DNA of 63,885 nucleotides, counting the filler, from Fonticula-like sp. SCN 57-25 (lineage: Eukaryota): the NCBI GenBank assembly GCA_001724245.1. It is 3 parts of 3 records of this genome, joined end to end, with 100 filler letters (N's around TTAATTAATTAA, not from the genome) between each part and the next. Parts side by side here need not be neighbours in the genome. Positions count along the whole stretch, not along the records: positions 1 to 25,422 come from MEDX01000060.1; 2 more parts are not named here. One strand, given 5' to 3'. Of the stretch, positions 21,077-50,303 are shown in pieces. A program made the position numbers and the translations under genes. Under the pieces are notes generated by a model. It was not told where the DNA came from and did no database searches. It saw nothing but the letters and a program-made list of their open reading frames with translations. Each line of letters starts with the position of its first letter. Position 1 is the stretch's first letter.

Positions 21077-23453
21077 ATGGCGCGAAACAGAGACGAGATC
21101 GCGCTTGGCACGATGAATCCTGCCAAGGATGCCGGCGGGGCGACTGGCATGATGGCCGTGCCGCCAGTGTCGCTTCTCTTTGAAGATGTCCGATTCACCG
21201 TCAAGGTGCCGGATGTGGAGGCCAAGCCTCGCACGTGTGGCGCGCGCATGGCTGGGCTCTGCAAGCGGACAAAGAAGGTTGAAAAGGAGCTGATCAAGGG
21301 CGTCTCTGGGTACGCCCTGCCCGGCGAGTGCGTTGCCGTCATGGGCGCATCGGGTGCCGGCAAGTCCACGCTGATCGACATTCTCGCTGGCCGCGCCAAG
21401 ACGGTACGCACTTCTGATTGGCCACTTTGTTTGGCTGCTGACTGCTGGCGCTGCTAGGGCATGGGATCGGGCACGGTCCAGCTCGGTTGCGACCCGAGCG
21501 TGTTTGACCCGCAAGCGCATGTCAGCTACGTTATGCAGGACGATGCGCTCATCTCCACGCTGACCGTCCGCGAGACGCTCACGTACGCCGCGCGCCTCAA
21601 GCTCGCGCCGCGTTTCTACGCAGAGCAAGGTGAGAACATTGTCGAGGTACGTGATGCGGCCTCAAATGCGAATGAAACTGAGAATCTTATGTACCATTCG
21701 TAGAATATTTTGCGCGTTCTTAATCTGCGCAAGGTTGCCAATTCGCGCATTGGCTCTGAAAAACGCCGCGGCGTGTCTGGCGGTGAGCGTCGCCGCGTGA
21801 GCATCGGAACGCAGCTCGTGACTCAGCCGAGCCTTCTCTTCCTTGACGAGCCGACATCTGGCCTTGACGCGACGAACGCTCTCCGCGTGGCGCGCGCCCT
21901 TCTTCGCCTCGCCCGCGAAGGCCGCACAATCATGTGCACAATTCACCAGCCGCGCTCAAACGTATTTTACTACTTTGACCGCCTGCTGCTGCTCTACGAA
22001 GGCCAGACTGTCTTTTTCGGCCCAACCGCCATGGCAACGCCCTACATGGCCACCCACGGCCTCGTGTGCCCGCCGCTCGTGAACCCGGCCGACTATCTGC
22101 TCGACATTCTCGACCCCGAATTTGACCCTGCTTCCGTCGGCCATGAAGACGACGACGACGAAGATGACGGCGACAGTGATGAAAGGAACGCGTCCGCGTC
22201 GTCCGCGCCGCTCAATAACCGTCGCGACATTGAAGCAGGCGAAAAGGAAAAGCAAGAGGAAGATGATGAGGATGATTATGATGACAAGACGATGTCGCCG
22301 CGCTCTACGATTGGCTCGCCGCCTATCATGTCGCCCGGCAACATCCAAGGCGACGACGCTGGCATTCACCCGCAGACGCTCGTGTCGCTGTACCCGCAGT
22401 CAGAGTATGCGGCCGCTTCGACGCAGCTCATGATTGACCTCCGTCGGAAGCACGGTGCGACGCGCGAGCTGTCGCGCAGCATTGGCACGACGACGGACCG
22501 GTACGCGACGAGCTTTTGGCTGCAGTTTAGCCTGCTGTGGCAGCGGACGCTCCTCGCCACCGTGCGCGACCCAGGTGTCATGTATGTGCGCACGGGCGCG
22601 GCGCTCTTTATTGGCCTGCTTGTCGGCCTCTTGTTCTTCCAGCTGCCCGACGAGCCGAGCTCGTCCGGCGACCGCACAAGCGTCATCCTCTTCCTCGTCT
22701 GCGTGTTTTCCCTCTTTTGCCTACCGGCCCTCAGCGGGTGCGTCACGTGAGATGAGGTCGTGCTTGCTAACATCAAGTAGATTTATTGAGGACCGTCAGT
22801 TGCTGCACCGAGAGCAGGGCGGCGGGTTCTATCGAACGTCGGCGTACTTTTTGGGCAGCTTTTTGGTCGAGCTTCCTATTCTCGTGATTGTCGTTGTCCT
22901 GTATAGCGTCGTGTGCTACTGGCTTGTCGGGTTTGAGCCAGACGCAGAGCACTTTTTCAGGTTCCTTGTACGCGTCTGATGACCGTATTTTCATTCTGCT
23001 TTGCTGACCGACGCGCCCACAGCTGATTGTGTGCCTCATCATCAACACCAACTTTGCCACGGCGCAGGCCATCGCTGCGTACGTGGAGACGATCACGATG
23101 GCGGCGGCGTGCTACATGATCGTGCTTGTGTACTGCCTGCTGCTCGGCGGGTTCATCGTCGCAAAGGCAAACCTTCCAGAGGTGCGCTGCATGGTTGCTG
23201 CGCTTTGATCTACACATACTAACCCAGCTGCTAGGGAGTCCAATGGGCGCTTTATACAAGCTACTACTTTTACGGCTACGAGTCGCTGTGCATCAACGAA
23301 TTCGAGAACAAGTCGTATGGCCCCGAGTTTTTAAAGGCGATGGGCTTTGAGGCGGACAATATGACCATTGATATCATCGCGTTGCTGCTCATCTTTATCG
23401 CACTTCGCGTCCTAGCGTACCTGCTGCTGCGGTTTGCAAATCGCGCACACTGA
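21077..23453 (+). CDS. ABCG (White family) half transporter
   Basis: Walker A GASGAGKST, signature VSGGERRR, Walker B LFLDEPTSGLD, TIHQP, C-terminal TMD. Confidence 0.95.
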
Positions 23454-23536
23454 TATGGGCACTGGCTGCCGTGTATGAATATCTCGTACTGTATAGAAAT
23501 AAATATATATATTGAAGTTTGCAAACAATTTGCACA

Positions 23537-23842
23537 TCAGATCAGCTCGACGCGAGCCGCCTTGGCCTCGAGCACCGTAATCAGATCCTGCTTGAGATCC
23601 TCCTTCATCCCCTTGCAAGTTTCGCTCAACCACTTCTCAAAACCTTCCGAGCCGCGCTCCAGGTACTCGATCAGGAGGCGGTAGGGGGTCGTCACGCCGG
23701 CCTCCACAAGGGCCTTCTCGGTGGCCTCGCCGATGGCTGGCAGGTCCTTGAGCTTCATATCCCTCATCCTCATGTCGAGAGCCTCCTGACCCTTCTTGGT
23801 CGTGGGCACGGGGGAAGACTTCACGGGAGACTTGTCACTCAT
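23537..23842 (-). CDS. Barrier-to-autointegration factor (BAF/BANF1)-like protein, copy 1
   Basis: 101 aa, colinear with BAF as recalled: TTKK~TSQK, DLPAIGE~SLAGIGE (HhH), LVEAGVTTPYRLL~LEERGFDKAYVVL, FEKWLSETC~FREWLKDTC. Confidence 0.75.
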   Translation of the reverse strand: MSDKSPVKSSPVPTTKKGQEALDMRMRDMKLKDLPAIGEATEKALVEAGVTTPYRLLIEYLERGSEGFEKWLSETCKGMKEDLKQDLITVLEAKAARVELI

Positions 23843-24425
23843 GATGTACGATTGAGAGGTGTTGCGGCGAGAGCGGCGAGAGAGCTTGCTTAAAAGTGAG
23901 CTAGGCGATCCTGCTGCAAAGTGTCGTCAACAACATTTCACCTGTTGCTATATACTCGGTGTCTGCCTCAATTTGGTAGCGGCAGACGGTCTGCCTTCGT
24001 CGTGATTGGCTGCTTTCTTTCCGCCATGGCCGTGATTGGTCGACTCATCGAGTGCTCCGATTGGATTCGCGCAGCGGTCCAGGGTGTCCACCACGGTCGT
24101 GTCATCAGGTAGACAGATGTATATCTCCCCGATAACGGTAGGCATTCCGCAGGAAAGTACTACCCGCAGTGCACTGAAGCGGCCTGTCTATGCAACTTGG
24201 TTTGTCAGCATGACCAGCCATGGAGCTCGGTCAATCTGATGCCCGCGGCTGACAATGAATAGCTGGCGCTCGCGACGCCCCTATCATCGATCATCGCGCT
24301 GCTGCTACTTTGCTGCTTTGCTTTGCAAACCGCGCTCACTGATATGGGCACCGGCTGCCGTGTATAAATATCGCGCATTGTATAGAAATAAATATATATA
24401 TTACAGTTTGCAAATAATTTACACA

Positions 24426-24725
24426 TCAGATCAGCTCGACGCGAGCCGCCTTGGCCTCGAGCACCACCATCAGATCCTGCTTGAGATGGCTCTTCATCCC
24501 CTTGCAGGTTGTGCCCAACCACTTCTCAAAACCTTCCGAGCCGCGCTCCAGGTACTCGGTCAGCAGGCGGTAGGGGGTCGTCACGCCGACCTTGACAAGT
24601 GCCTTCTCGGTTGCATCGCCGATGGCAGGCAGGCTGCTGAGCTTCATATCCATCAGCCTCGTGTTGATGGAGATCTGTCCCTTCTTGGTCGAGGGGGAAG
24701 ACGTCACGGGAGAGTTGGGACTCAT
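24426..24725 (-). CDS. BAF-like protein, copy 2
   Basis: 99-aa intact paralog of copy 1, 889 bp away. Confidence 0.75.
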   Translation of the reverse strand: MSPNSPVTSSPSTKKGQISINTRLMDMKLSSLPAIGDATEKALVKVGVTTPYRLLTEYLERGSEGFEKWLGTTCKGMKSHLKQDLMVVLEAKAARVELI

Positions 24726-25310
24726 GATGTACGGTTGAGAGGTGTTGCGGCGAGAGCGGCGAGAGAGCTTGCTTGAAAGTGAGCTAATGGTCCAGCTGCT
24801 CTTCACCTGTTCTATATACTCGGTGTCTGCCTCAATTTGATTGCGGCAGACCGTCTGCCTTCTTCGTGATTGGCTGCTTTCTTTCCGCCATGGCCGTGAT
24901 TGGTCACCTCATCGATGTGCTCCGATTGGATTCGCGCCGCCGTCCAGGGTGTCCACCACGGTCGTGTCATCAGGTAGACAGATGTATATCTCCCCGATAT
25001 GGTAGGCAGTCCACTGAAAAGTACTACCGCAGTGCACTGAAGCGGCCTGTCTGTGCAACTTGGTTTGTCAGCTTGACCAGCCATGGAGCTCGGTAAATCT
25101 GATGCCCGCGGCTGACAATGACCAGCTGGCGCTCGCGACGCCCTCATCGATAATTATCATGATTATCATCGCGCTGCTGGCTTCGCTGTGCAAACCGCGC
25201 TCACTGATATGGGCACTGGCTGCGTATAAATATCCCGTACATTATAAAAATAAATAAATATATTAAGGCTTACAAACATTTTTCAGGGATACACAAACGA
25301 TTCGGTCACA

Positions 25311-25422
25311 TCAGATTTGCTCCACGCGAGCGGCCTTGGCCTCGAGCACCACCATCAGATCCTGCTTGAGGTCATCCTTCACACCCTTGGCGATTCCGCT
25401 GAACCACTTGTCAAAACCCTCG
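25311..25422 (-). CDS. BAF-like protein, copy 3 (3' part only, cut by gap)
   Basis: EGFDKWFSGIAKGVKDDLKQDLMVVLEAKAARVEQI*. Confidence 0.7.
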
Positions 25423-25522
25423 NNNNNNNNNNNNNNNNNNNNNNNNNNNNNNNNNNNNNNNNNNNNTTAATTAATTAANNNNNNNNNNNNNNNNNNNNNN
25501 NNNNNNNNNNNNNNNNNNNNNN
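25423..25522. other. Assembly gap / artificial contig linker
   Basis: N44-TTAATTAATTAA-N44 (stops in all six frames). Confidence 0.97.
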
Positions 25523-27996
25523 CATTGCCCGCCACGCCTGCAGGGCACGTGATGCGCTGACATGGGTTGATGATCTCGCCGAATGTGCCGTCGGGGCCGC
25601 ACGTGCGGCTCGGACTGCCAAAATACTTTTCGTCACATGTGCCGGTAACCGTGGCAAACGCGTCGGCGGCCGGCCACGTGGAAAAGCCATCCGTCACGGC
25701 TGCGCAGCGGACAATCGTGCAAGGATTTGACACCGCGAGCCAATCGCCGTACGCGCTGCAGTCACGCGTGGGGCTGCCGCTGTAGCCGGAAATGCATTCG
25801 CCAGACACAGACTGGGAAAAGGCGGGCGCGTGCGGCCAATTGGCATTGTTTCCTTGGGTAGCGGAGCAGAAGAGCTGCACACATGGATTGGTCACCGTCG
25901 ATGCCCATTGGCCGTCAGCTTGGCAGGTGCGCGAAGGGGTGCCAGCATAGCCGGAAACGCAGATGCCGGTGGCTGTTGTCATTGAAGGCGTGCTTGCCGG
26001 CCATGACGCGTTACCAAACGTTCCGGCGACGCAATAGTGGCGATTGCAAATTGGCGAAACAGTTGACGACCACGTGCCGTCAAGTCGACACTGTCTCTGC
26101 GGCGACCCAAAGTACCCATCGATGCAAACGCCAGTACCATAAGAGCCTCCATTCGTCGATGGCCATGCGGCATTCTGGAACAAGGATTCATCGGGGCACG
26201 CAGGGGAAACGCACTCGCCTTTTACATCCGTTGACCATTCACCGGATGCGAGGCATTCGCGCTGTGGTGCACCTTGAAAGCCAGAGGAACACGTGCCAAC
26301 CGCAGTAGTGAGCGAGTCGCTCTTGGGCCAGATGACATTGTTCAAGGAATCGGCGAAACTGTCGCACGTAATACCTGCAAAAGAACAACTTTAGAGGTCA
26401 TTAAAAAACAACAGCGGCGCGTACGAACGCAAGGCGAGTTAACTTCGCCCCACGTCCCCGACGCAGAGCAGCTGCTTGAAGGAGATCCCGTATAGCCGGC
26501 AACGCATGTGCCATATCCGCTCGTCATGCTATCCGTATCTGTAAAGTTTGCATTGCCCATGGTGGCAGCAGCGCAGAATAGACGAGTGCACGACGTCAAG
26601 GCTGTAGGTGCCCACACGCCGTCGCTTTGGCACCGACGAGTAGCAGACCCCGCATAGCCCGAAATGCATGTTCCATTGGCTAACTCGCCGCCGTTTGTGA
26701 GCGGATAGGTTGCGCTGCCGACAAAACCTGAATTGTCAGCGGGGCATGATGAAACTATATTGCATGTCAGCAAACACATTGTCACGTGATGTGCGTACGA
26801 GTGCAAGGATTGGACACGGCACCCCAGGCAGTATTGCTGCAAAAGGCTGTTGGCGATCCAGTAAAACCACTTAAGCAGGTGCCGTGGGCGGTCTTGTCAG
26901 ACTCTGTCTGGGGAAAGTTCGCGTTGCCCATGGTCCTGGCAGCACACGCGGTATCTACAAAATATCATTAGTAACATATGATGTGCGGGATGCGCGTACA
27001 GGTGCACGACGTTCCGGAGCCGCTGTAATACTTGTTGCAGACGCACGCGCCACCAGTACATGTCGCATTAACGTGGCAAGTAAAGTAATCAAACGATAGA
27101 TACGGAACGTAGCTTCCATCGCGGGACACGTGCGTTTCCCAAGCCACAAGAGTCGCTTGCGAATAGAAATTCCGGATAGTTACCTGACAATCGTCGTGTT
27201 AAAATGTCGCCTCAATCGCACAGCGGAAACGCACCGCGCTGCTCGATTGGCGAACGGCAGCGTTGATAACGTCTGGCGACAAAGGCACATAGTACCAGTA
27301 CGTATCGTAACCGCTTGATGAACCAGGTTAGTTAGGCAAAGATACCTCGGCTGAATATGCGCACTAGGTGTATCCGGCGATGACACTTGCGGCGGATTCA
27401 TCGAGTGAAGGCTGAGTATTCCATGTCAACGTTGCAAAGTTGCTGCATCTCAAGTCAATAAAGCAATGGCACGAAATATTACAACGTACACGGCGTCCTT
27501 TGGTACGTCGACTATGACATTGCTCGTCAGGCTTGAAGGACTTGTCGACGCATAATTGAGGTATAGCCGTGGTGTGCCTGTTGCACAAAAACGCGCAGGA
27601 ACGGGCTAGAACATATTGCGTCAGCAATAATCGGGTGCTACAATTGGAAACGAACCGCATGACTGGCGAAATTGAATTTGTAGTAGGCGACGCTCGTCGG
27701 TTCTGAACCACTGCCTTGCGTAAATGTTTCGGTATTTTCCCACTCGCAAAAATTTCCAAGCGGAGGCCACCAACCACAATCTTCCTTGGGACTATAATTT
27801 GTGGTAGGGCTGGACAACCTTGTGTGGATGGCATCGTGCGCATCTACGACTACCGCGGTGGCTGTGCAGCGACCTCATCAGCATTCTCTGAAATCCCGCG
27901 CCCATTCGCACCTTGCACAAACAAACTAGCCAACAGGGCGGCGACGAGCAGAACGGCGAGTGATCTCCCCCCCGCGCGGCTCCTTCGCTCCTCCAT
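25523..27996 (-). CDS. Secreted/surface protein with an N-terminal DNRLRE/CBM96-like domain and many ~52-aa four-Cys repeats (3' end in gap)
   Basis: Signal peptide exon (LAVLLVAALLASLFVQ); repeats C-x6-8-W-P-x-T..G-x-C-xx-G-Y-x-G-S-P-x-R-x-C-xxx-G-x-W..P-C. Confidence 0.75.
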
Positions 27997-39125: not shown

Positions 39126-41156
39126 TTACACTGCGACGGCGGCGGTCTTGTCGGCAGCCACCCTTCCCTCGAGCGCGCCCTTTTCGATCCCACCGGTCAT
39201 CACCGACGGCATCTTGCGGCCCATGTTGCTCACGAGGACATTCGGCACATGCAAAAACACATACTAACCACCCATTAGTCACCATTAATATTATCACGGT
39301 GTGCGTACGTCGCAGATCGCGTCCTTGATGCGCATCGTGAGGAGGCACTTGTAGTCGACGGTCGGCTGCAAAAAGGTCGCCAGGATGGGCGAGTCCTCGG
39401 GCAGCAGCCTACATTTCTCGCGTGAGCACACAATCTATAAACCTTTACTGTCATTGCGGGTACGCACCTGTGGAGATGGTTGCGGACGATCTCCCAGGCA
39501 ACATCGTTGTGGTGCAGCCCGAGCGCGCGCGCCAGCCTGTGCAGCTGCAGCTGAATGCCCGTGTGGAAGAGAACCGGCGGCGAGTCGGCCGGCGTCTCGG
39601 ACACGATGGTCGACCCCGGCAGCAGCTCGAGGTCGACGCCCAGCGTCTCCTTGAGCGTCGCCACGTGAATGCGCAGCCCGCCAAAGTCGCGCACGGCGAA
39701 CCCGACGAGCTCGCCGGCGTCATTGAAGCGCGCGAGCACGTTCTGGCCGTGCGTCTCAAAGGCGAACGCGTGGTCGCGCAGCGGCGGGATGAAGCAGTCG
39801 AGGAACAGACGCGCGTAATTCTCGAAAAAGGCGACGCGCGAGGAAAACGAGTCGAGGCCGAGCACGCTCACGACGTTGGCCACGCCAGTGAGCGGGTCGC
39901 GCTCGACAAGGGCGCCTGTAATGATAAAGTGCTCAGAGGGGCGCAGGCGCGAGGGGTCGTCGCGGATGATGCACGCAAGGTGTTTGGCGACAGAGGGCGA
40001 GGCGTGAAGAGCGCCAATCGTGGCGGGTTCATCAAGAATCAAAAGCTCTAACCGAACAAACAGGACCAAAGGAAATACCAAAATTGTTAGTGACGTTTGC
40101 CAATGCTGCTGCTTCACGCACCTGGCGGGGCAATCATGCGGGCGACCTGGCCGACGCGCGGGCCGTTAAACACCGAGTAGGGCGAGATCGTGCGGAGCGC
40201 CGACGTGGCCTGCACGCCGAGCGACAGCTTGACGTGGTACGGCAGCGTCAGCGGGCTCATTGAACGCAGCTGCAAACCGAGGTCAGTTTGCATATCAATA
40301 GCCATGCATTCGTACCGAGGTCTGCGGGTAGGCGGACTGCGTGCCCTCGAGGAGGCGCGCCTGCGGGAAGCGCTCCTGGACGCGAGGCCACTGCCCGGGG
40401 TGGACCGGCACGACGACGAGGTCGGCCGACGGCGACGGCGGCGCCCAGCCCTTCATGATGCTGCAAAGATGAAAAAAGTCAGTGGCGTGGGGACAATGCA
40501 AGAGTGGCGCACCTTTCAAAGTCGCCGTGGATGGCCATGTCGGCGCGCGGCATCGTCACAAACTTGATGCCGACGGTCCGGCGCATCTCGGCGGCCCACT
40601 CGAGCGTCTCCTCCTTCGTGAGGCCAATGCGCGTGCGGTGCATCGGGTGCGTCGGATGACCCTCAACGACCGCGCGCTCCCAGTCGATCGCCGGCGACGA
40701 AATCGACAGCGGCTCGCGAGGCGAAAGGTACGCGAGCTCCTGATTCCGAACGGAGCTGTCCAGCTCGGCGGCGATCGAGGCCGCGACGTCGTCCGAGGGA
40801 GGCGGAGAAAGGTGAGGCGCCACGAGGAGGAAGAGCGCGCTTGGCATCGACATGTCGCCGGCACGAGCGGCGGGTGTCTTCACCGAGACGGACCACGACG
40901 CAATGTCCTCCTGGTCGATGAACTCGATCGTGCGCGAGCCGGCCAGCACCGCCTCCGGGACAACCGAAAAGGCAAAGCTGAACGCAGGGGAGGAGCCGTC
41001 AGCGCACGACGGAGGCGCCACAATCACAGATCCGCTTACGGCATCGAGCACCGTGCACGACACGAGCTTCTCATTGATGAGGGCGGCCACGAGGCGACGA
41101 AGCGTCGCGCGACGGGCAAGCGACTGGGCGTCGGCGACTGTCATTTGTTGTGTCAT
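39126..41156 (-). CDS. NRPS-independent siderophore synthetase (IucA/IucC family), about 5 introns
   Basis: EGHPTHPMHRTR, VPVHPGQ, PQTSLRS, HVKLSLGVQATSALRTISP, FETHGQNVL, VRDFGG. Confidence 0.9.
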
Positions 41157-50203: not shown

Positions 50204-50303
50204 NNNNNNNNNNNNNNNNNNNNNNNNNNNNNNNNNNNNNNNNNNNNTTAATTAATTAANNNNNNNNNNNNNNNNNNNNNNNNNNNNNNNNNNNNNNNNN
50301 NNN
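50204..50303. other. Assembly gap / artificial contig linker
   Basis: N44-TTAATTAATTAA-N44. Confidence 0.97.

Follow-up and report, generated by a model that had tools for sequence, protein, structure and literature searches.

BAF (BANF1) is called a 'conserved metazoan protein' in two papers (PMC3198171; PMC8053085). The human gene is highly conserved, and animals as a rule keep one or two BAF genes per genome, under strong purifying selection. Vertebrates also carry BANF2 (BAF-L), a diverged BAF paralogue that heterodimerises with BAF and modulates it. The subject of this paper is a set of three tandem genes encoding BAF-like proteins at positions 23537 to 25422 of a stretch of DNA from Fonticula-like sp. 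SCN 57-25 (GenBank assembly GCA_001724245.1), an organism that is probably not an animal. The whole stretch, 63,885 nucleotides (nt) long, is referred to as the window. How closely does this locus resemble animal BAF, and where does it depart from it?

Several properties of animal BAF bear on the comparison. As described in PMC8053085, VRK1 phosphorylates BAF at Ser4 and then at Thr3, which strongly lowers DNA binding; the N-terminal region forms part of both the DNA and the lamin interfaces, and helix alpha-4 lies at the dimer interface. In PMC5630835 the LEM domain is given as Holozoa-specific and the BAF-LEM tether as 'likely Metazoa restricted'.

The copies resemble human BAF (PDB 1CI4, 6GHD, 7Z21, 9J8M) in the size of the folded domain and in an all-helical fold over 86 of 88 residues, and the hairpin glycine G27, Leu34, Gly38, Tyr43, Phe59 and Trp62 of the human protein are conserved in them. 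They differ in that human BAF is without the Ser/Pro-rich N-terminal tail that the copies carry, and in that a highly conserved gene stands against three tandem, diverging copies (71-77% identity; ratio of non-synonymous to synonymous change, dN/dS, 1.17 between copies 1 and 2). The animal habit of one or two genes under strong purifying selection thus does not hold at this locus, although that habit is not a structural criterion. A further difference lies in the partners: because the host is probably not an animal and the LEM domain is reported (PMC5630835) to be specific to Holozoa, a LEM partner is unlikely.

A BAF fold in a tandem array

On the predicted structure, the copies are BAF folds and remote members of the BAF family, each protein being a fold of about 88 residues behind a Ser/Pro-rich tail of 11-14 residues. 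The third copy is truncated in the window, but its 36 visible residues recur without a difference in P0004, a 102-residue protein of a separate assembly, and for this reason P0004 is most likely the whole third copy. With P0004 taken as copy 3, all three reading frames are intact, with no stops or frameshifts. Copy 2 is 75-77% and P0004 71-73% identical to copy 1.

The fold was approached from several sides. The gathering score (cut-off) of the Pfam family SAM_BAF (PF02961) is 25 bits. Copy 1 reaches 33.1 bits (E 8e-8), with residues 14-92 on profile positions 3-82 of 88; among the three copies, one is above the threshold, one at the line and one below it. A search of the PDB with a profile of six sequences (the three copies and the environmental proteins P0005, P0008 and P0010) placed BAF in the top seven positions, at E 9e-6 to 1e-4, with the next match at 0.011. 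The AlphaFold2 model of copy 1, built on the six-sequence alignment (pLDDT 87.5, pTM 0.78), has the form by which a BAF fold is recognised, a helical domain of ~89 residues with a helix-hairpin-helix (HhH) motif that is matched over its full length. With Foldseek, the top eight matches of the model are all human BAF (TMt 0.76-0.81, root mean square deviation 2.1-2.5 over 84-86 columns), and the next match has a TMt of 0.48. VIA-align, a comparison independent of Foldseek that covered 48,161 chains, gives BAF at Z 13.2 (root mean square deviation 1.9 A, 86 of 88 residues); the runner-up fold is the SAM domain, at Z 7.1. In an ESM Atlas look-alike search SAM_BAF clusters come first and make up 16 of the 30 matches, the best at 0.95 with 200 of 256 features shared.

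Could the proteins instead carry a generic HhH or SAM-like DNA-binding domain that came to look like BAF by convergence? Weak side matches to HHH_5, IMS_HHH, Cdd1 and TfoX_C (E 0.04-0.2) might be taken that way, as might the SAM domains at Z 5-7. Against this, BAF is far ahead in both fold comparisons (Z 13.2 against 7.1; TMt about 0.8 against 0.48) and is matched at full length, copy 1 passes the Pfam cut-off, and in the PDB profile search BAF alone is at the top. Convergence is thus very improbable. The original prediction had called the proteins BAF-like from an alignment and would have given way to a finding of only a generic HhH; Pfam, the PDB profile, the two fold comparisons and the look-alike search agree on BAF, and the match goes beyond the motif.

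Layout of the array

A direct repeat of 115 nt is present in three copies, at 23533-23647, 24422-24536 (90%) and 25307-25421 (83%), which sets the three units 889 and 885 base pairs (bp) apart. The repeats (families D1-D8) span nearly all of each unit, intergenic DNA included, and the units differ from one another by 10-17% in DNA, with indels. Each unit has one minus-strand open reading frame, of 101 residues in the first, 99 in the second and, in the third, truncated after 36 codons. The tandem array of diverging genes that had been proposed is therefore borne out as three direct units. The features of the locus are as follows.

23537..23842, minus strand: BAF-like copy 1 (P0002), 101 residues, single exon; from the open reading frame, Pfam, the AlphaFold model and fold comparisons
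24426..24725, minus strand: BAF-like copy 2 (P0003), 99 residues; from the open reading frame and Pfam
25311..25421, minus strand: BAF-like copy 3, C-terminal 36 codons and stop, truncated at the contig end; from the frame as read, identical to the end of P0004
23843..24310, minus strand: upstream region of copy 1; from reading of the sequence, 92.8% identical to the unit 2 upstream region
24726..25175, minus strand: upstream region of copy 2; from reading of the sequence
23426..23453, plus strand: true 3' end of an ABCG-type transporter gene (...LLLRFANRAH*, stop at 23451-23453), the proximal edge of the repeat unit; from repeat D8 and alignment
24315..24358, plus strand: transporter 3'-end relic in unit 2 (final ~30 coding bases, stop codon and 3' flank); from D8 and alignment
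25180..25223, plus strand: transporter 3'-end relic in unit 3; from D8 (93%) and alignment
25423..25522, no strand: contig joint, N44 + TTAATTAATTAA + N44; from the identical joint at 50204-50303

The insert TTAATTAATTAA in the joints at 25423-25522 and 50204-50303 gives a stop in all six frames. As the same N44-TTAATTAATTAA-N44 joint occurs at both places, the window is three contigs set end to end, and the array lies at the right end of the first (1-25422). The third copy had been said to run into a gap. It does break off after 36 codons, but the gap is a contig joint and not a scaffold gap, so that the DNA past copy 3 is unlinked to it and neighbourhood across the joints is not genomic.

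Residues compared with human BAF

Residue correspondences to human BAF were taken from the alignment of the six-sequence profile with the PDB. Residues T14-T15-K16-K17 of copy 1 stand opposite human T3-S4-Q5-K6, and copies 2 and 3 have S-T-K-K here. L34-P35-A36-I37-G38 is opposite human L23-A24-G25-I26-G27, and G49, Y54, F68 and W71 are opposite human G38, Y43, F59 and W62. The second hairpin glycine (human G27) is invariant in six of six family members. Ahead of the fold are the Ser/Pro-rich tails of 11-14 residues, SPVK..SSPVP, SPNSPVTSSPS and SAKSPVSPAKSAPS. The isoelectric points (pI) of copies 1, 2 and 3 are 5.57, 9.37 and 8.92.

The kept Ser/Thr-Thr-Lys motif makes a phospho-switch like that of VRK1 plausible, as S/T-T-K-K is retained at the position of Thr3-Ser4-Gln5-Lys6.

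A proposed function

What might such proteins do? The reading favoured here, with a probability of roughly 0.55, is that these tandem genes of the BAF superfamily provide phospho-regulated, LEM-independent DNA bridging by specialised paralogues in what is probably a non-animal microbe. The conserved HhH core would, to judge from the motif, bind double-stranded DNA without sequence preference, and segments of DNA would be bridged if the proteins dimerise as BAF does. A dimer prediction for two chains of copy 1, run without an alignment, scored 0.21 against a mark of 0.32, which speaks neither for nor against a dimer. Phosphorylation at (S/T)-T-K-K, and perhaps also at the S-P sites of the tails, would switch binding. 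Given the reported confinement of the LEM domain to Holozoa, the role suggested is a LEM-independent one in chromatin bridging or nuclear reassembly. The paralogues may have become specialised through their divergent helix alpha-1 and residue 72-89 surfaces and through net charge, so as to serve different partners, heterodimers or conditions. BANF2 offers a precedent for paralogue specialisation; it differs, in a comparison by description only, in being confined to animals, in having no linkage to BANF1 and in adding just one copy.

A number of observations weigh against this reading. Copy 2, at 24.8 bits, falls just below the SAM_BAF cut-off, and P0004, as the full copy 3, scores 19.2 bits. 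A PDB search with a profile of the three copies alone finds human BAF at only E 0.62-0.65, and identity to human BAF in the structural alignments is 24-26%, i.e. remote. Where human BAF has the first glycine of its G-I-G hairpin, all three copies, and five of six family members, have alanine (A-I-G in the copies); human G47 is opposite I58 in copy 1 and a threonine in copies 2 and 3; and human Leu52-Lys53 has no counterpart, owing to a two-residue deletion. With a dN/dS of 1.17, copies 1 and 2 show no significant departure from 1 (Fisher p 0.69), which would allow relaxed constraint. The phospho-switch and the promoter elements are putative, recognised by alignment and motif only.

A more specific proposal goes further, and is tentative. 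A non-holozoan lineage may keep a tandem-expanded, LEM-independent BAF-like system that diversifies on helix alpha-1 and where the last helix begins, the surface that in human BAF is phospho-switched and contacts DNA and lamin. The copies would then be either a small arsenal for binding foreign DNA in the cytoplasm or a set of interchangeable heterodimer subunits by which chromatin bridging is adjusted at mitotic exit.

Divergence and selection among the copies

Units 1 and 2 are 86.7% identical in their coding sequences (40 differences in 300 aligned bases) and 92.8% identical upstream over 414 aligned bases; the coding sequence has thus diverged more than the non-coding DNA upstream of it (Fisher p 0.010). 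Copies 1 and 2, the one full coding-sequence pair from which dN/dS could be taken, differ by 31.7 non-synonymous and 8.3 synonymous changes as counted by the Nei-Gojobori method. The distribution of changes is uneven. When the three proteins are compared, 6 of the 38 positions of the HhH core (residues 34-71) are variable, against 28 of 63 elsewhere (Fisher p 0.004); divergence is greatest in the tail, in residues 14-33 (helix alpha-1 plus the loop behind it) and in residues 72-89. Such uneven variation fits constraint on the HhH core and not uniform decay.

Did the copies diverge in a conflict with foreign DNA? Amplification with diversification is typical of defence genes, and animal BAF coats and compacts poxvirus DNA. 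A family of this kind would coat or compact incoming DNA, viral or otherwise cytoplasmic, and its diversification would be an arms race against antagonists or kinases of viruses. This restriction role would share the mechanism of the favoured reading and fits the pattern of divergence, in which coding sequence changes faster than upstream DNA, 32 of the ~40 coding differences alter the protein, and the changes fall mainly on helix alpha-1 and residues 72-89 and spare the HhH core. PMC4063967 and PMC13712952 describe a DNA-binding, antiviral action of BAF that proteins of viruses oppose. On the other side, nothing at the locus links it to viruses, and a scan of viral contigs with the family alignment found a relative encoded in none of 145 candidate stretches. 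The flanking genes are of the housekeeping type. dN/dS is not significantly above 1 in that one full coding pair, and gene conversion among the promoters could equally make upstream DNA more alike than coding DNA. A defence role is accordingly held to be doubtful.

Or are the copies merely drifting, with one working gene and functionless duplicates in decay? A dN/dS of about 1.17 between copies 1 and 2 would suit drift, as would the scores of copies 2 and 3 under the Pfam cut-off. Three frames free of stops and frameshifts argue against it, as do the strong unevenness of variation between core and remainder and the conservation of the promoters. Over the last 36 codons, copy 3 compared with copies 1 and 2 has dS ~0.4 and dN/dS 0.38-0.43, and these values indicate that copy 3 split off earlier and has been under net purifying selection over the longer term. 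Decay of spare copies is thus unlikely.

A third possibility is stage-specific packaging of chromatin, in a cyst, spore or gamete, where basic copies with S-P-x-K-like tails would condense DNA. The Ser/Pro-rich tails contain SPVK, SPNSP and SPVSPAK, and tail motifs of the SPVK type recall those of histone H1 and of sperm histones; copies 2 and 3 are moreover basic (pI 9.4 and 8.9). Copy 1, however, is acidic (pI 5.6), and three copies are few for a bulk packaging protein, which leaves packaging improbable.

Copy 2 is a mosaic. In its N-terminal half 32 of 37 residues are identical to copy 3 and 24 of 37 to copy 1, whereas in its C-terminal half 44 of 51 are identical to copy 1 and 40 of 51 to copy 3; these are protein comparisons, as the DNA of the N-terminal half of copy 3 lies outside the window. 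Eight of the 13 residues unique to copy 1 are at positions 14-32, and the outgroups share the copy 2/3 state at N23 and T24. The pattern suggests either a fast change of helix alpha-1 in copy 1 or gene conversion among the copies.

Promoter-like elements

The window holds two of the upstream regions, and these carry the same elements in the same order. On the gene strand, copy 1 is preceded by TATATAG (23948-23954), a palindrome (23981-23995) and CCAAT boxes (24003-24010, 24033-24040 and ~24057-24064); copy 2 by TATATAG (24812-24818), a palindrome (24845-24859) and CCAAT boxes (24867-24874, 24897-24904 and ~24922-24929). In both units TATATAG lies ~90-110 nt before the ATG. The palindrome, GGCAGACnGTCTGCC, is a perfect 7+7 repeat (GGCAGAC-n-GTCTGCC) between the CCAAT boxes and the TATA element of both promoters, and could be the site of a dimeric transcription factor. 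RCCAATCR has two matches per unit; over the whole window there are 19 where 10.6 would be expected, a count attained by 2 of 100 shuffles. The boxes serve as description only. An AT-rich stretch directly after the stop is kept in all three units.

These upstream elements look like ordinary RNA polymerase II signals and would act as promoters. A scan for promoters and terminators of the bacterial type is not meaningful for a eukaryote, and Rfam gave no match at E<=0.1 over 23300-25422.

Origin of the array and copy number

How did the array arise? A transporter gene on the plus strand (Pfam ABC_tran and ABC2_membrane) adjoins its left side, convergent with copy 1. Since relics of the transporter 3' end recur in units 2 and 3, the unit that was copied reached from inside the last transporter exon to a point upstream of the promoter of the BAF-like gene. 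As read from these repeats, the array is a plain tandem duplication: a unit of ~885 bp, beginning within the last ~30 coding bases of the ABC-transporter gene, would have been duplicated together with the BAF-like gene and its own CCAAT/TATA promoter.

A metagenome is the source of this assembly and the array ends a contig, so the units might be strain variants of one gene that were stitched in tandem, the more so as the contigs of public runs over the array are short and fragmented. Yet the units differ by 10-17% with indels, and each further unit has its own transporter 3' relic, which in itself weighs against an artefact. Contigs from the runs also cross the critical junctions. In run X1, record 2 (22914-23562) joins the ABC-transporter gene to copy 1 and record 6 (24229-24451) spans the unit 1/unit 2 junction; in run X2, record 14 (23547-23881) covers copy 1; none of the three has a differing letter. 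This support is partly independent only, because X1 may be the source sample, and the figures of X2 and X3 are identical and may come from one data set. The proteins of copies 1, 2 and 3 recur on 6, 6 and 3 contigs. An artefact is scarcely credible in the light of these points.

Does the array go on beyond the contig end, as the original prediction had allowed? Two protein searches found only three distinct proteins of the BAF-like kind that are >70% identical, each a cluster of one member, and for this reason three genes is the best estimate and the most likely number; there may be further identical copies, and the depth of run contigs gives no copy number. One X1 contig has a joint from 25422 to 24538 (back 885), which fits copy 3 continuing past the contig end. 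Two kinds of variant piece, X1 record 5, a promoter-like piece with 18 differing letters, and a joint from 24050 to 24198 that skips 147 bases and is present in X1, X2 and X3, could belong to the upstream region of copy 3 or to a further unit.

The locus is listed in 17 public runs, none of them RNA and all DNA metagenomes, from bioreactor, wastewater, soil, 'fungus', aquatic and invertebrate gut sources. Runs X4, X6, X8-X10, X13 and X15 hold shares of 0.05-0.19 of the locus words, and several of these are 'fungus metagenome' runs of 2025 from different studies. Contigs of X4 are 90-99% alike over parts of the transporter gene and the copy 1 promoter. There may be related strains or species in other habitats.

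Relatives and rarity of the family

The family is rare. The six-sequence alignment, set against a collection of 5.8 billion proteins, returned the same six proteins only at E<=1e-3 (4986 candidates, 44-179 residues), and the three-copy profile, run exhaustively with HMMER over 1.84 billion representatives, brought up 13 proteins at E<=1e-3. Among the 12 of these that are not the query, SAM_BAF is found at E<=0.01 in 10 and at >=25 bits in 8; the two without it at E<=0.01 are P0007 and P0010. P0007 is a SHIPPO-repeat protein and was set aside as probably a false match. A scan of metagenome contigs found one locus among 371 candidate stretches.

The nearest relatives are the environmental single-domain proteins P0005 (94 residues), P0008 (90 residues) and P0010 (80 residues), with 45, 35 and 34% identity. 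They share with the copies the invariant L-x-x-L-P-x-x-G, G49, F68 and D-L-x-x-V-L-x-x-K; they differ in that most of the Ser/Pro tail is absent, and their sources are other assemblies, of metagenomes or of runs. P0005 is encoded by one exon on the 1058-nt metagenome contig L001, and on contigs as short as this tandem copies around the single-domain relatives would not be visible.

Two-BAF-domain proteins of environmental eukaryotes (P0006, P0009, P0011, P0012, P0014 and P0016) match the same family profile at E 1e-8 to 5e-4. SAM_BAF is found in all six at E<=0.01 and reaches its cut-off in five, P0006 scoring 23.1 bits. In contrast to the copies, they have two domains in a chain of 236-314 residues. 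A hydrophobic stretch, read by eye, is N-terminal in P0006, P0011 and P0014 and C-terminal in P0016. A two-domain chain could bridge DNA without dimerising, and a membrane-tethered, 'built-in dimer' BAF could connect DNA with a membrane independently of LEM proteins.

Two further proteins with such domains may be recorded here. P0017, a member of the P0011 cluster, lies on a 1065-nt contig of a metagenome-assembled genome that NCBI labels Promethearchaeia (Asgard archaeon). It may be a eukaryotic contamination of the bin; an archaeal origin, if genuine, would be remarkable. In P0015 (553 residues) two BAF domains (93.5 bits) come after an endonuclease/exonuclease/phosphatase domain of the endonuclease-reverse-transcriptase type, and the protein looks like a retroelement open reading frame with captured BAF domains.

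The host and the rest of the window

On the first contig are eukaryotic genes interrupted by short GT..AG introns (myosin I, Avl9, FYVE, DTW, translin and ABCG). On the second is an intron-free ATAD3 gene whose best named relatives are those of oomycetes (52-56%), fishes (52-54%) and Nannochloropsis (51%); use of this gene to place the host assumes that the three contigs are from one organism, as binned at the source. A look-alike search with the myosin gave a first cluster commonest in Haptophyta and then Chordata, and hence no placement. The host is likely a non-animal microbial eukaryote, and stramenopile affinity is only a lead. The original prediction of a protist thus stands as far as the short-intron genes and ATAD3 support a microbe that is not an animal, but the placement among oomycetes and animals is almost tied. 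Pfam scans of 34 longer open reading frames in the 64-kb window detected no LEM, lamin or VRK, a sample that is uninformative on the genome.

The second contig begins with minus-strand DNA (25524-26779) encoding Cys-rich repeats of ~55-60 residues, with Pfam matches to HRM (48.7 bits), Ephrin_CRD and Sushi; the product is probably an extracellular repeat protein truncated at the contig end. Farther along the same contig, at 39278-40165 on the minus strand, an open reading frame that stands among eukaryotic genes encodes a FhuF-like ferric iron reductase domain (49.6 bits), whose family is mostly bacterial.

Significance

What is new, as far as can be read from the genes, is a remote BAF subfamily with an N-terminal Ser/Pro tail that is tandem-amplified and fast diverging. 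A literature search for BAF in oomycetes or 'non-metazoan' organisms, or for BAF arrays in protists, found none, although supplements (e.g. that of PMC5630835) or domain databases may list some. The finding is modest at present, as the organism is uncultured and the proteins are known from genes and a predicted model alone.

BAF has been described as metazoan, with a LEM-dependent role at the nuclear envelope, whereas this locus presents a clear BAF fold in a probable non-animal microbe. The three copies, together with the environmental two-domain BAF proteins, some of them probably membrane-anchored, suggest that the fold has a greater age and takes more forms than one would gather from animals. 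The locus constitutes a natural experiment on which surfaces of BAF may vary. If the non-holozoan, LEM-independent reading is true, DNA bridging of the BAF type would not be an animal invention.

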